NCBI GenBank assembly: GCA_963724695.1
Contig: CAVRVW010000008.1
Coordinates: 237,290-301,289, forward strand
DNA from: an uncultured Acidobacteriota bacterium
Lineage (GTDB): Bacteria > Acidobacteriota > Vicinamibacteria > Vicinamibacterales > CAVVIG01
Direction of reading: 5' to 3'
Length of the DNA: 64,000 nucleotides
In this document: in pieces, positions 8,355-59,752 of the stretch
How the letters are laid out: each line of letters opens with the position of its first letter
Position numbering within the stretch: the stretch's first letter is position 1
Notes under the pieces: generated by a model
What the model was told of the DNA's origin: nothing
What the model saw: only the letters and a program-made list of their open reading frames with translations
Databases searched by the model: none
Program-made: the position numbers and the translations under genes

Positions 8355-10077
8355 CTATGAAGTTCGTCCTTCCAGGAAAGCGCGCAGCTTGCGGCTGCGC
8401 GACGGATGCCGCAGCTTGCGGAGCGCCTTGGCCTCGATCTGCCGGATGCGCTCGCGGGTGACGGCGAAGCTCTGGCCGACCTCTTCGAGCGTGTGCTCGC
8501 TTCCGTCGCCGACGCCAAACCGCATCTTGATCACCTTCTCCTCGCGGGGCGTCAGCGTCTTCAGCACCGACTCGGTCTGTTCCTTGAGGTTCAGGTTGAT
8601 GACGGCCTCGGCCGGCGACACGACCTGACGGTCCTCGATGAAGTCGCCAAGATGCGAATCTTCCTCTTCGCCGATGGGCGTTTCGAGCGAGATGGGCTCC
8701 TGCGCGATCTTGAGGACCTTCCGGACCTTGCTGACCGGGATGTCCATGCGCTTGGCGATCTCTTCGGAGGTGGGCTCGCGCCCCAGCTCCTGCACGAGCG
8801 CGCGAGAGGTCCGAATGAGCTTGTTGATGGTCTCGATCATGTGGACCGGGATGCGAATCGTTCGCGCCTGGTCGGCGATCGCGCGGGTGATGGCCTGCCG
8901 GATCCACCACGTGGCGTAGGTCGAGAACTTGTACCCGCGGCGGTACTCGAACTTGTCCACGGCCTTCATCAGGCCGATGTTGCCTTCCTGGATGAGATCC
9001 AGGAACTGCAGGCCGCGGTTCGTGTATTTCTTGGCGATGGAGACCACGAGGCGGAGGTTGGCCTCGACGAGCTCCTTCTTCGCCTGCTCGGCCTGCCACT
9101 CGCCGCGGATGATCGTGTCGAGCGTCTGCTTCAGCTCCGCGGGCTCCTGCTCGAGCGTATCGGTCATCGCCTTGAGCTTGAGCTTCTGGTCCTTGGTCTG
9201 CTTCAGGAGGTTCTTCCTGTCCTCCTCGCGCAGCTTCTGCTTCTTGTTCTTGGGGTGCAGCAACCGGTCGATCGCTTCGATCTCGCGCTGCACGCCCTTG
9301 ACGCCTTCGACGGCTTCCTTCATCTCGTCGATGAGCCGCCGCTTCACGGCTTCGGTGAACTCGATCCGGCGAATCGCGTTCGAGACATCGACGCGCGCGC
9401 GCATCGCGGCCCACCGGGCTTTCCGGTACTTCCTCTTGTCGCGTGTCGTCGCGCCCTTGGGGGTGCTCGCCAAGCTTCTCGTCGAGCTTCTCGGACGCCG
9501 TGCGCGCCTTGCGCACGCCGTCGATCTGCTTCTGGACCTGGCGCGAGCGCTCCTGGATCCGTTCGTCCGTGATCTCCTCGTCGTTGAAGATCACCAGCTC
9601 GCGGATGGTCCGCTCGCCCGAGTGCAGTTCGTCGCCGAGGCGGATCACCTTCTTGGCGACGAGCGGCGTGCGGGAGATCGACTTGATGACGGCCAGCTTG
9701 CCGCGCTCGATGCGCCGCGCGATCTCGACCTCGCCTTCGCGGGTGAGCAGCGGCACCGTGCCCATTTCGCGGAGATACATCCGGACCGGATCGTTCGTCT
9801 TGTCGAGCGCGCCCGGCGTGAGATCGAGCTCGATCTCCTCGGAGCCCTCGGCCGTGCGGTCGATGGTCTTCTCGTCGCGCAGGTACTTCTGGTCCGAGTC
9901 GATGACCTCGATGCCGGCGCTGCCGAACGTGTTGAAGAGATCGTCGAGCTCTTCGGAGGACGTGATTTCCGACGGCAGCAGCTCGTTCACCTCGTCGTAC
10001 AGGAGATAGCCCTTCTCCTTGCCGATGTTGATGAGTTGCCGGACTTCGTCGTATTTCTCTTCGATCGACACGCGCAT
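8355..10077 (-). pseudogene. rpoD: RNA polymerase primary sigma factor RpoD, reading frame broken once as assembled (probable 1-nt insertion in the G5/C5 run at 9459-9463)
   Basis: Regions 1.1-1.2 (MRVSIEEKYDEVRQLINIGKEKGYLLYDEV...TNDPVRMYLREMG) are in the frame starting at 10077. Regions 2-4 ([67 protein letters not shown]...[18 protein letters not shown]) are in the 8355-9473 frame, offset by one nt. Past ~9460 the first frame yields only Arg/Gly/Pro-rich nonsense. Confidence 0.9.
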
Positions 10078-10082
10078 GCCTC

Positions 10083-57180: not shown

Positions 57181-57284
57181 GGCGCTTCCGAGTATAATTC
57201 CACCCTTTTGTCGGGAGACGAACCCCGCGTGCAGTGAAGACCTGGGCCGGGGCCCTGACACACGTGAATATTTAGAGAGGTCAG

Positions 57285-59752
57285 ATGAACGCGATCGTGA
57301 AGAGTTTTCTGAAGCGGCTGCTGGTTCCCTCGCTCCTGCTGGGCGCCCTGACGGCCGCGCCCGCGCTGGCGGTGGCGCAGCAAGAAACGCAGACCCAGGC
57401 GGCACATACGGGAGGCGGCGAGGCGAACCTCGTGCTGCCGGACCTGAGCACCGTTGACTTCAATGGGATAAGCGGGCCGACCCTCCTGATGGGCGGCATC
57501 GGCGTGTGCATTCTCGGCCTGCTGTTCGGCCTGATGACTTTCACGCAGCTCAAGAACCTGCCGGTGCACCGCTCGATGCTCGAGGTGTCCGAGCTGATCT
57601 ACGAGACGTGCAAGACCTATCTGATCACGCAGGGCAAGTTCATCCTGGTCCTCGAGCTCTTCATCGGCGTGATCATGGTGTTCTACTTCGGCGTCCTGCA
57701 GGAGATGGAGGCCTTCCGCGTCGCGGTGATCCTGCTCTTCAGCCTGATCGGCATCGCAGGCAGCTACGGCGTCGCGTGGTTCGGGATCCGGGTCAATACG
57801 TTCGCCAACTCCCGGGCCGCGTTTGCCAGCTTGCGCGGGCAAGCCGTTCCCCATTTATGCGATTCCGCTTCGCTCCGGCATGAGCATCGGCATGCTGCTC
57901 ATCAGCGTCGAGCTGTTGCTCATGCTCAGCATTCTGCTCTTCATGCCGCGTGACTACGCGGGAGCCTGCTTCATCGGCTTTGCCATCGGCGAGTCGCTCG
58001 GCGCGGCCGCCCTCCGAATCGCCGGCGGCATCTTCACGAAGATCGCCGACATCGGATCGGACCTGATGAAGATCGTCTTCAACATCAAGGAAGACGACGC
58101 GCGCAACCCGGGCGTGATTGCCGACTGCGTCGGGGACAACGCGGGCGATTCGGTCGGGCCGAGCGCTGACGGCTTCGAGACCTACGGCGTGACTGGCGTC
58201 GCGCTCATCGTGTTCATCGTGAACGCCGTGCCAGAACCGACCGTGCAGGTCCAGCTGCTCGTCTGGATCTTCGTCATGCGCATCATGATGATCATCGCGA
58301 GCGGGCTGTCGTATTTCGTGAACGAGGCGATCGCCAAGAGCAAGTACGACGAACGTGGACAAGATGAACTTCGAGGCGCCGTTGACGACGCTCGTGTGGC
58401 TGACCTCGATTGTCTCGGTGGTCATCACCTACGCGGTGTCGTATGTGCTCGTGCCGGATCTGGGCGACGGGTCGCTCTGGTGGAAGCTCTCGACCGTGAT
58501 CACGTGCGGGACGCTGGCGGGCGCGATCATCCCGGAGTTCGTCAAGGTCTTCACGTCGACCGAGTCGGGCCACGTCCGGGAAGTCGTGGCCTCCTCGAGA
58601 GAGGGCGGCGCGTCGCTGAACATCCTCTCCGGTTTTGTCGCGGGCAACTTCAGCGCGTACTGGCTGGGCCTGACCATCGTGTTCCTGATGGGCATCGCCT
58701 ACTGGGTGAGCCTCTTCGGCCTGGGCGATCTCATGCTGGCGCCGGCCGTGTTCGCCTTCGGGCTCGTGGCGTTCGGGTTCCTCGGCATGGGGCCGGTCAC
58801 AATCGCGGTCGATAGCTACGGCCCGGTCACGGACAACGCGCAGTCGGTCTTCGAGCTCTCGGTCATCGAGCAGATTCCCGGCATCAAGGAAGAGCTGAAG
58901 AAGACGTACGGCTTCGACGTGCGCTTCGAGCGGGCGAAGGATCTGCTCGAGGAGAACGACGGCGCCGGCAACACGTTCAAGGCGACCGCCAAGCCCGTGC
59001 TCATCGGCACGGCGGTGGTCGGCGCGACGACGATGACCTTCTCGATCATCGTGGCGCTCACGCACGGCCTGACCCAGAACCTGGACAAGCTGTCGCTGCT
59101 GCACCCGCCGTTCATGCTGGGGCTCATCACGGGCGGCGCGGTGGTGTACTGGTTCACCGGCGCCTCGGCCCAGGCGGTCACGACCGGCGCCTACCGCGCG
59201 GTGGAGTTCATCAAGGCGAACATCAAGCTCGAAGGCGCCGAGAAGGCGTCGGTCGAGGACAGCAAGAAGGTGGTGGAGATCTGCACGCAATACGCGCAGA
59301 AGGGGATGTTCAACATCTTCCTCACCGTCTTCTTCTCCACCCTCGCATTTGCCCTGGTGGAGCCCTACTTCTTCATCGGCTACCTGATGTCGATCGCGAT
59401 GTTCGGCCTGTACCAGGCCATTTTCATGGCCAACGCGGGCGGCGCCTGGGACAACGCGAAGAAGATCGTCGAGGTGGAGCTCAAGGCAAAGGGCACACCG
59501 CTCCATGCCGCGACGGTGGTGGGCGACACGGTGGGCGATCCCTTCAAGGACACGTCGTCGGTGGCGCTGAACCCGGTGATCAAGTTCACGACGCTGTTCG
59601 GGCTGCTGGCCGTCGAGCTGGGCGTGAAGCTGTCGACCGACGTGGGAGCCGGGCTCACGCACAGGCTGGCGGCGGTTTTCCTGGTGCTTTCGATGGTCTT
59701 TGTCTACCGGTCGTTCTACGGCATGCGGATTGGCGGGGCGTCGGGGGCGTAG
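57285..59752 (+). pseudogene. hppA: Membrane H+(/Na+)-translocating pyrophosphatase, two +1 frame breaks as assembled
   Basis: Three consecutive forward frames (57285, 57823, 58355) each carry contiguous H+-PPase sequence: ...NSRAAFASLRG | KPFPIYAIPLRSGMSIGMLL...GGIFTKIADIGSDL...DNAGDSVGP... | DKMNFEAPLTTL...DSYGPVTDNA...GGAWDNAKK...GDTVGDPFKDT. Breaks lie near 57833-57842 (GGG) and 58348-58357. Confidence 0.9.

Follow-up and report, generated by a model that had tools for sequence, protein, structure and literature searches.

Programmed +1 frameshifting of the kind known from prfB (release factor 2) takes place at sites where a slippery codon lies next to an in-frame stop, with a Shine-Dalgarno-like element upstream, and which are conserved across species. 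Slippage can also occur during transcription, which usually needs a run of at least 7-9 A or T. When haplotypes or strains are merged during assembly, heterozygous sites can be mis-resolved, leaving collapsed-haplotype artefacts in the consensus. Frameshifting indel errors in long-read assemblies are measured by the IDEEL test and can be repaired by tools of the proovframe type; the literature sees in them the chief shortcoming of consensus sequences built from long reads (PMC9262707), as reportedly does the proovframe preprint (10.1101/2021.08.23.457338).

The window analysed here, a stretch of 64,000 nt, contains 11 frame breaks distributed over six genes: rpoD, mutS2, accD, a deoxynucleoside kinase gene (dNK), a HEAT-cyclophilin gene (HEAT-PPIase) and hppA (Table 1). 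As originally predicted, all are +1: each consists of exactly one surplus nucleotide shifting the frame in the same direction, as is borne out by Pfam domains that jump between frames and by the removal of one base per site, which yields open, full-length proteins from all six genes. These corrected proteins, which align to their orthologues without gaps, represent the conserved form, rather than the single-frame translations as assembled. At 11/11 sites G or C is a valid reading of the inserted base, in agreement with the claim that taking out a single G/C repairs each junction, with an inserted A being an equally possible placement at 58352. All 11 events are insertions (p = 0.001), and no deletion was found among the breaks in comparison with sister or relative sequences. 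The proposed concentration of seven breaks within 2.1 kb (48.0-50.0 kb) was likewise confirmed, these sites spanning 1,965 nt (P about 1e-6 under uniform placement). A hidden Markov model of GC content by codon position detected no other change of frame on the same strand within the window, the remaining switches that it reported coinciding with stop codons at gene boundaries when checked against the ORF lists.

The positions of the extra bases on the plus strand of the window were fixed by DNA alignments. Near-identical sequence was available from four contigs in three other assemblies, L001 and L004 (NCBI GCA_025450795.1) and L002 and L003 (JGI 3300035165 and 3300035166), which are 97.8-99.6% identical to the window. 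The extra base is missing from these sisters at all eight of the sites that they cover, where their MutS2, AccD, dNK and HEAT-PPIase genes are intact, and each gap corresponds to a surplus base in the window, never to a missing one. Relative to L004, there is no other indel between 44.2 and 57.2 kb. The three sites without a sister, one in rpoD and two in hppA, each appear as a single 1-nt gap in alignments with relatives of 76-87% nucleotide identity; these comprise six distant relatives for rpoD and two (L005 and L013) for hppA. The orthologues and sisters of the affected genes are all single ORFs, none of which shares the frameshift, and after correction the genes match their sisters in length and have no internal stops. 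Exact-protein look-ups of the neighbouring genes at 7163-7909, 56572-57180 and 46167-47444 returned no match, probably owing to start-codon choice or single-residue differences.

Table 1. Affected genes and extra bases in the 64,000 nt window. Extra bases are bracketed within their context.
Feature	Position	Strand	Context or basis
rpoD (primary sigma factor), two frames	8355..10077	-	Pfam domains, orthologue alignment
rpoD extra base	9465	-	gene strand GAG[C]ACC CCC AAG
mutS2 (MutS domain V plus Smr), two frames	11958..14340	-	sister L001, ORF domains
mutS2 extra base	13385	-	gene strand ATCA[G]AGATC
accD (acetyl-CoA carboxylase carboxyltransferase beta), three extra bases	47441..48304	-	frames f2, f0, f1, f2
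accD-3 extra base	48020	-	+ strand CAGGCG[C]GGCC; absent from L003, L004
accD-2 extra base	48114	-	+ strand CATGCT[G]CAGG; absent from L003, L004
accD-1 extra base	48182	-	+ strand GTCGTC[G]AGATC; absent from L002, L003, L004
Deoxynucleoside kinase (dNK), three frames	48323..48981	-	homologues, L004 length
dNK-2 extra base	48456	-	+ strand GTCGCC[G]TCGTAG; absent from L002, L003, L004
dNK-1 extra base	48892	-	+ strand CGATG[C]GTGG; absent from L002, L003, L004
HEAT-repeat / cyclophilin-type peptidyl-prolyl isomerase fusion, three frames	49008..51187	+	L002, L004 orthologues
HEAT-1 extra base	49372	+	TTGACG[C]CGCTC; absent from L002, L003, L004
HEAT-2 extra base	49985	+	GCGACG[C]GGTC; absent from L002, L003, L004
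hppA (membrane pyrophosphatase), three frames	57285..59752	+	Pfam H_PPase, orthologues
hppA-1 extra base	57835..57837	+	TTGCG[C]GGGCAAG; C or one G of GGG, placement ambiguous
hppA-2 extra base	58351..58352	+	TACGAC[G]AACGTG; G or one A of AA, placement ambiguous

In rpoD, the Sigma70 regions r1.1/r1.2 are encoded by one ORF (8170-10077) and r2/r3/r4 by another (8355-9473), and the junction shows no gap when the corrected 573-aa protein is aligned to orthologues 90-93% identical to it. At this point each of the six JGI metagenome relatives reads GAG-ACG CCG AAG; a metagenome scan found only relatives of 76-85% identity for rpoD and no near-identical sister. The N-terminal domains of MutS2 lie in ORF 13219-14340 and the C-terminal domains in ORF 11958-13364, and L001 carries an intact 793-aa MutS2. 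Its extra base is the sole gap in 6,370 nt aligned to L001 at 99.56% identity; this site, covered by one sister only, is an A/G pair instead of a C/G pair and had no match, with or without the extra base, in species-representative genomes. Both breaks had been assigned to G runs. However, the extra base in rpoD adjoins the C5/G5 run at 9459-9463 from outside, at 9465, 2 nt beyond it, and that in mutS2, at 13385, is 8 nt off the G6 run at 13372-13377, which rules out homopolymer slippage at either run.

Of the remaining coordinates, 48182 and 49372 were placed outside the proposed ranges by the DNA alignments. Both positions in dNK (48456 and 48892) and both in hppA (about 57836 and about 58352) are within the predicted ranges. 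In accD, 48020 and 48114 were correctly bracketed, while 48182 lies 1 nt outside 48169-48181; similarly, the range for the second HEAT-PPIase site contains 49985, while 49372 is 6 nt outside 49358-49366.

The sisters' AccD is intact at 286 aa. By contrast, the assembled accD contains three insertions that jointly bring the frame back, and annotation would therefore take it for an intact gene of 293 aa; although ORF 47441-48322 is open, only profile positions 1-19 of the 26 in its zinc ribbon are left. About 54 residues would be scrambled in the product, including half of the zinc ribbon. The ten close homologues of dNK are all intact 218 aa proteins, and removal of two bases from the window's gene gives 657 nt, as in L004. 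HEAT-PPIase is an intact 725 aa protein in L002 and L004 (HEAT_2 plus Pro_isomerase), and its corrected gene has the same 2,178 nt as that of L004. In hppA, for which no near-identical sister covering the sites was found, positions 1-101, 105-264 and 269-644 of the H_PPase profile fall in three successive frames and ORFs. The corrected HppA, 821 aa long, is gap-free at both junctions against 821-aa orthologues. Each site is a single 1-nt gap relative to both L005 and L013, and the alignment with L005 has no further gap anywhere in the hppA coding sequence.

Where sisters and relatives can be compared, the codons at these sites hold two alleles side by side. At 48020, GCC in the sisters and GCG in L005 and L013 face GCCG in the window; at 48182, leucine codon CTG in the sisters and CTC in L012, L005 and L013 accompany CTCG in the window. 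Likewise, on the gene strand at 48114, AGC in the sisters and CAG in L005 and L013 are both contained in the window's CAGC, which is their union. In dNK, the glutamate codon GAG of the sisters and the aspartate codon GAC of L012 correspond to GACG at 48456, and ACC in the sisters and ACG in L005 and L013 correspond to ACGC at 48892. Beside 49372, the sisters' G corresponds to C in L013; C is also found beside 49985 in L005 and L013.

This pattern was assessed in a MAFFT alignment of window positions 47450-51180 with three sisters and three relatives, a region which holds the seven testable sites, rpoD and hppA being without a near-identical sister. In all 7/7 columns occupied by the window alone, the base matches that of a relative at the neighbouring position, where the sister has the other allele, against a null of 0.138 per site (binomial P = 1e-6). 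In a stricter four-way alignment, 6/6 qualifying sites were C/G pairs, as against only 16 of the 76 ordinary substitutions between the window and L004.

The same signature recurs in related assemblies. Within 10 kb, L013 (ENA ERZ25039565 contig_27810) shows 29 extra bases that are isolated and private to it (15 G, 13 C and 1 A). The allele signature is seen in 21 of them (null 0.103, P = 3e-15), and the majority of the genes of L013 are broken up. In L005 (ERZ25039547 contig_40327), secD is broken by extra bases, while the window's secD is intact. Private single-base columns are absent from L004. L013 is 93.7% identical to L005 and 88.4% to the window, and L005 and the window share 84.8% identity. 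The contig names of L005 and L013 are Flye-style, and from this naming we would guess that ERZ25039547 and ERZ25039565 came from a Flye plus Medaka Nanopore pipeline.

The surplus bases have no counterpart in relatives and copy a neighbouring SNP allele, and are therefore almost certainly consensus errors of a mixed-strain metagenome assembly, not biology. In all probability, the 11 extra bases result from the collapsing of strains that occur together in one Vicinamibacterales population. Two or more such strains would have contributed reads to a single contig and, at strain SNPs, which nearly always set C against G, both alleles may have been retained in tandem at the consensus or polishing stage, each event contributing exactly one nucleotide; the organism's real genes would be intact. 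Writing both alleles in tandem would explain why all breaks are +1, why the added base is G or C, and why the sites lie outside homopolymers. The sites would cluster because the co-assembled strains differ locally, although substitution density relative to the sister is only mildly raised in 48-50 kb; the cluster may stem from divergence of the strains in this stretch or from a shift in coverage there. The absence of the extra bases from the sisters and the allele match are direct observations, from which we infer a mixture of strains in the source sample. The original prediction had also preferred assembly error to inactivation or recoding, which the intact sister genes and the lack of decay support; its attribution to locally low quality was right as to error, and can be made more specific, as the second allele of an adjacent SNP standing in tandem with the first.

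An alternative is that these are random insertion errors, independent of strain polymorphism, in a low-coverage stretch of long-read consensus. This is consistent with the richness in indels of the related contigs with Flye-style names, and a local dip in coverage could yield the clustering; furthermore, Nanopore consensus below about 40x has been found to retain frameshifting indels (PMC9262707). However, such errors should include deletions and occur mainly in homopolymers, whereas only insertions are seen, mostly extending no homopolymer: a run is clearly lengthened at 49372 alone (one C to two), with 57836 and 58352 as further candidates. Random insertions would also match a relative's adjacent allele in about 14% of cases rather than at every testable site, which makes this account unlikely.

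Two context-dependent causes were also considered and rejected. Methylation-linked error near GATC might be suspected from the GATCT[C] reading of mutS2 and accD-1, but the other nine sites lack GATC, and the tandem-allele model covers both of these. Similarly, the G[C]G context, considered as a base-calling signature, is accounted for by C/G SNPs in codons rich in G+C, without any further cause.

The extra bases do stand in the sequence as given, and might be real mutations in a strain whose rpoD, accD, mutS2, dNK, HEAT-PPIase and hppA are frameshifted and inactive or decaying. This is very improbable: rpoD and accD are essential in free-living bacteria, and populations 99.2-99.6% identical to the window keep the genes intact. 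Once corrected, the genes differ from their sisters by ratios of synonymous to non-synonymous codons of 2:0 in mutS2, 7:1 in accD, 7:5 in dNK and 9:6 in HEAT-PPIase, so that the three hits in 165 nt of accD would stand beside a single non-synonymous change; the corrected genes carry no signs of pseudogenes in the form of excess non-synonymous changes, stops or deletions. Bacterial mutation favours deletions, which are absent, and no mutational process predicts an inserted base that copies a segregating allele.

The uniform direction of the breaks, and the full-length products that skipping of one base would give, might suggest programmed +1 recoding, with the ribosome or RNA polymerase passing over one nucleotide per site. 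Direct reading of the eleven contexts upheld the prediction that they share no slippery motif; nor do they have in common a slippery codon, an in-frame stop, a Shine-Dalgarno-like stimulator or a long homopolymer, and none of the 11 sites has a homopolymer tract long enough to suggest transcriptional slippage. The frameshift is conserved neither in populations 99% identical nor in any orthologue, and the affected genes vary between related assemblies, from secD in L005 to nearly all in L013. Programmed recoding can thus be given almost no credence, and it is scarcely conceivable that real extra bases are tolerated because rpoD and accD are expressed through +1 skipping that is motif-free, context-free and genome-wide. 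Neither recoding nor gene decay is indicated.

The importance of these errors lies in data quality rather than biology. As deposited, the contig gives a split primary sigma factor, pyrophosphatase, MutS2, kinase and HEAT-PPIase, and the warning that automatic annotation would be wrong here holds, all the more since accD passes as intact though scrambled. The signature (insertions only, of G/C, each repeating in tandem an allele of a C/G SNP beside it) is shared by two related assemblies and, if general, would add truncated or chimeric proteins to catalogues of long-read metagenome-assembled genomes from strain-diverse populations. It might also serve as a simple, reference-free flag for such sites, and perhaps as a rule for their repair.

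Compared with known systems, the breaks resemble prfB-type frameshifting in comprising one extra nucleotide relative to the protein, yet none of the features of such sites is found at these breaks. They are closer to the indel errors of long-read (Nanopore or PacBio) sequencing, in which single-base indels split conserved genes into adjacent ORFs, and similarly are missing from independent assemblies and found above all in contigs named in the Flye style that belong to large metagenome assemblies at ENA. However, such errors are described as both insertions and deletions in homopolymers, whereas those in the window are insertions only, mostly outside homopolymers, almost exclusively G/C, and copies of an adjacent SNP allele. 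Collapsed-haplotype artefacts differ in that no account of a tandem C/G outcome came up in a literature search, and in that the two strains are here presumed to have been present. Nevertheless, the likeness to these artefacts is twofold: the window holds both of the alleles found among close relatives at one position, and L013, intermediate between two lineages, is riddled with the same defect.

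The window, with a G+C content of 64-70% and a strong signal at the third codon position, contains eleven frame breaks in rpoD, mutS2, accD, a deoxynucleoside kinase (dNK) gene, a gene for a HEAT-cyclophilin fusion and hppA. ORF lists and three-frame read-outs showed homology switching frame where the original prediction had placed the breaks, and Pfam matches were divided accordingly. In rpoD, ORF 8170-10077 encodes Sigma-70 regions 1.1 and 1.2, and ORF 8355-9473 encodes regions 2, 3 and 4; in mutS2, the N-terminal part is read in one frame and MutS domain V and Smr in another; and positions 1-101, 105-264 and 269-644 of the H+-pyrophosphatase profile fall in three hppA ORFs in three successive frames. 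Deleting a single base at each site produced six open, full-length proteins, which aligned without gaps over the junctions to ten 218 aa kinases (94-97% identity), to 821 aa pyrophosphatases (88-94%) and to sigma factors (90-93%). Because the Pfam matches jump frame and the corrected proteins are gap-free, all eleven breaks are real in the sequence as given, each corresponding to one extra nucleotide, as ortholog alignments also indicated. The predicted uniformity of direction held, with 11/11 being insertions (p = 0.001 if insertions and deletions were equally likely), as did the clustering, seven sites falling inside 1,965 nt (P about 1e-6). A G or C fits as the extra base at every site, with A an equally possible placement at 58352. 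A seven-state HMM built on codon-position G+C detected no same-strand frame switches in the window beyond these; its remaining switches matched stop codons at gene boundaries when compared with the ORF lists. One stretch called non-coding by the codon-position HMM harbours a TPP riboswitch (Rfam RF00059, 67.6 bits; 32937-33032, + strand).

Near-identical sister contigs lack the extra bases. A search with DnaG, the protein sequence being the same as that of the window, recovered a 6.4 kb contig of NCBI metagenome assembly GCA_025450795.1, which matches window 9723-16092 at 99.56% identity. Besides 27 substitutions, the only gap reflects an additional gene-strand G in the window, at 13385; MutS2 is intact in this sister, at 793 aa. 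Three more were recovered with the corrected kinase: L004, a 13.1 kb contig of the same assembly spanning window 44171-57268 (99.15% identity), and contigs L002 and L003 from JGI metagenomes 3300035165 (99.2%) and 3300035166 (97.8%). All three carry the kinase as one uninterrupted ORF, AccD is intact in L004, and the HEAT-cyclophilin protein is intact in L002 and L004, where the contig has the whole gene. Gaps always represented a base in the window missing from the sister, never the reverse, and the seven coding gaps lie at the five positions in the table and at 49372 and 49985. Four further single window bases missing from L004 are intergenic, upstream of hppA (57216, 57231, 57246 and 57253), all within the first 90 nt of L004, a part of the sister that may not be reliable, and the more distant relatives have diverged too far there to be informative. 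The L004 kinase (8319-8975, protein P0006) has three non-synonymous differences in six codons, reading EADHHIYFHY where every other close homologue has EAYHHFFFHY, which may reflect local error or strain mixture in GCA_025450795.1 as well. The HEAT-cyclophilin fusion (49008-51187, + strand) has a proline-rich linker, and its hydrophobic N-terminus, which ends in Cys, resembles a lipoprotein signal. The fusion is conserved in every relative examined, at 714-725 aa, beside the kinase gene, which is transcribed divergently.

As the near-identical sisters found do not span rpoD and hppA, these were compared with more distant relatives. Over the whole hppA coding sequence, L005 (ENA ERZ25039547 contig_40327), a syntenic 947 kb contig of about 84.6-84.8% nucleotide identity, showed exactly two gaps, at approximately 57836 and 58352, the window being longer by 1 nt at each. 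In rpoD, all six JGI contigs (76-85% identity) had one 1 nt gap at window 9465, the relatives reading GAG-ACG CCG AAG and the window GAG[C]ACC CCC AAG. The tRNA-Met gene (anticodon CAT; 8132-8207, - strand) directly downstream of rpoD is 93-97% identical in five of the more distant relatives. The extra base of rpoD sits just past the G5 run to which it had been assigned, the gene-strand C run being native ACC CCC, and that of mutS2 is 8 nt from the proposed G6 run; the first breaks in the HEAT-cyclophilin gene and accD exist, but lie 6 nt and 1 nt outside their predicted ranges. Most extra bases are not homopolymer extensions. Real inactivating mutations are not a credible explanation, given that two essential genes would be affected, three extra bases fall inside 165 nt of otherwise conserved accD, deletions are absent and the genes are intact in populations 99% identical.

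Local alignments including the relatives L012 (92.5% identical), L005 and L013 (ENA ERZ25039565 contig_27810, 53.7 kb, about 87-88.4% identical to the window) revealed that, at the tabulated sites, the window has two alleles, segregating among relatives at a single position, written in tandem.

Alleles of sisters and relatives at sites where the window carries an extra base
Site	Position	Sisters	Relatives	Window
accD-3	48020	GCC	L005, L013 GCG	GCCG
accD-2	48114	AGC	L005, L013 CAG	CAGC
accD-1	48182	CTG	L012, L005, L013 CTC	CTCG
dNK-2	48456	GAG (Glu)	L012 GAC (Asp)	GACG
dNK-1	48892	ACC	L005, L013 ACG	ACGC

This adjacent-allele signature, whereby the extra base is the same as a relative's base at the directly neighbouring position where the sister has another, was present in 7/7 window-only columns when window 47450-51180 was aligned by MAFFT to six further sequences (null probability 0.138 from applying the rule at every alignment junction, P = 1e-6), and at 6/6 sites in a four-way alignment of 47300-57150 (null 0.112, P = 2e-6). 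All six of the latter were C/G pairs, against 16 of 76 ordinary window-sister substitutions. Random insertion error at low coverage may have contributed, but predicts neither insertions only nor a complete allele match.

The same defect affects other genes in related assemblies. Most genes of L013 are in pieces, and over 16 kb it has 53 single bases that the window lacks; its positions 1-15850 match window 43154-58968, fragments including TGT of 129 aa, BacA of 78 aa and a divided secD. Its private isolated single-base columns in the four-way alignment number 29 (15 G, 13 C, 1 A), 21 of them bearing the signature (null 0.103, P = 3e-15), with C/G pairs at 16 of these 21. Identities were 93.7% between L013 and L005, 88.4% between L013 and the window and 84.8% between L005 and the window, an intermediate position for L013 that suggests a blended consensus of two lineages. 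In L005 5864-7469 (window about 53.2-54.8 kb), extra bases arriving one or two at a time split secD into five ORFs of 43, 81, 126, 90 and 68 aa, whereas secD is intact in the window (532 aa); two TonB-dependent receptor genes further along L005 look split too. L004 had no private single-base columns in the four-way alignment. The defect therefore tracks the assembly, rather than the gene or organism. Programmed +1 recoding lacks its defining features here: the eleven contexts have neither a slippery site nor a stimulator in common, no ortholog or sister examined shares the frameshifts, and the affected genes differ between assemblies.

The frame breaks are thus not biological, and the predicted assembly artefact is both supported and made more specific by the sisters and the allele signature. 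Most likely, reads of co-occurring strains were merged into one contig, and the consensus step would have written both alleles serially at some C/G SNPs, adding one base per event. Such a tandem-allele consensus would explain why the direction is constant and the composition G/C, why homopolymer context and a shared motif are absent, and why the corrected genes look healthy: they are the same length as those of the sisters, and their differing codons are synonymous:nonsynonymous in ratios of 2:0 (mutS2), 7:1 (accD), 7:5 (kinase) and 9:6 (HEAT gene). We infer two strains in the source sample, as we do the program responsible; the contig_NNNNN names of L005 and L013 suggest Flye. The cluster at 48-50 kb may reflect greater divergence of this tract or a strain ratio that shifts locally, substitution density there being only mildly raised.

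A practical point, beyond the annotation problems already predicted, arises from accD, which passes as intact yet is partly nonsense. Its insertions total three bases, so a gene caller would accept AccD as a normal 293 aa gene, the assembled ORF (47441-48322, - strand) being open end to end. Nevertheless, from 48020 to 48182 about 54 residues are read out of frame, among them the second pair of Cys in the zinc ribbon, and the Zn_ribbon_ACC match is shortened to profile positions 1-19 of 26.

No description of the tandem-allele signature was found in the published literature. In Nanopore metagenomes, residual indels have been described as homopolymer errors that become fewer once coverage exceeds about 40x, and a single Medaka polishing round to lower indels has also been described (PMC9262707, PMC12313526).
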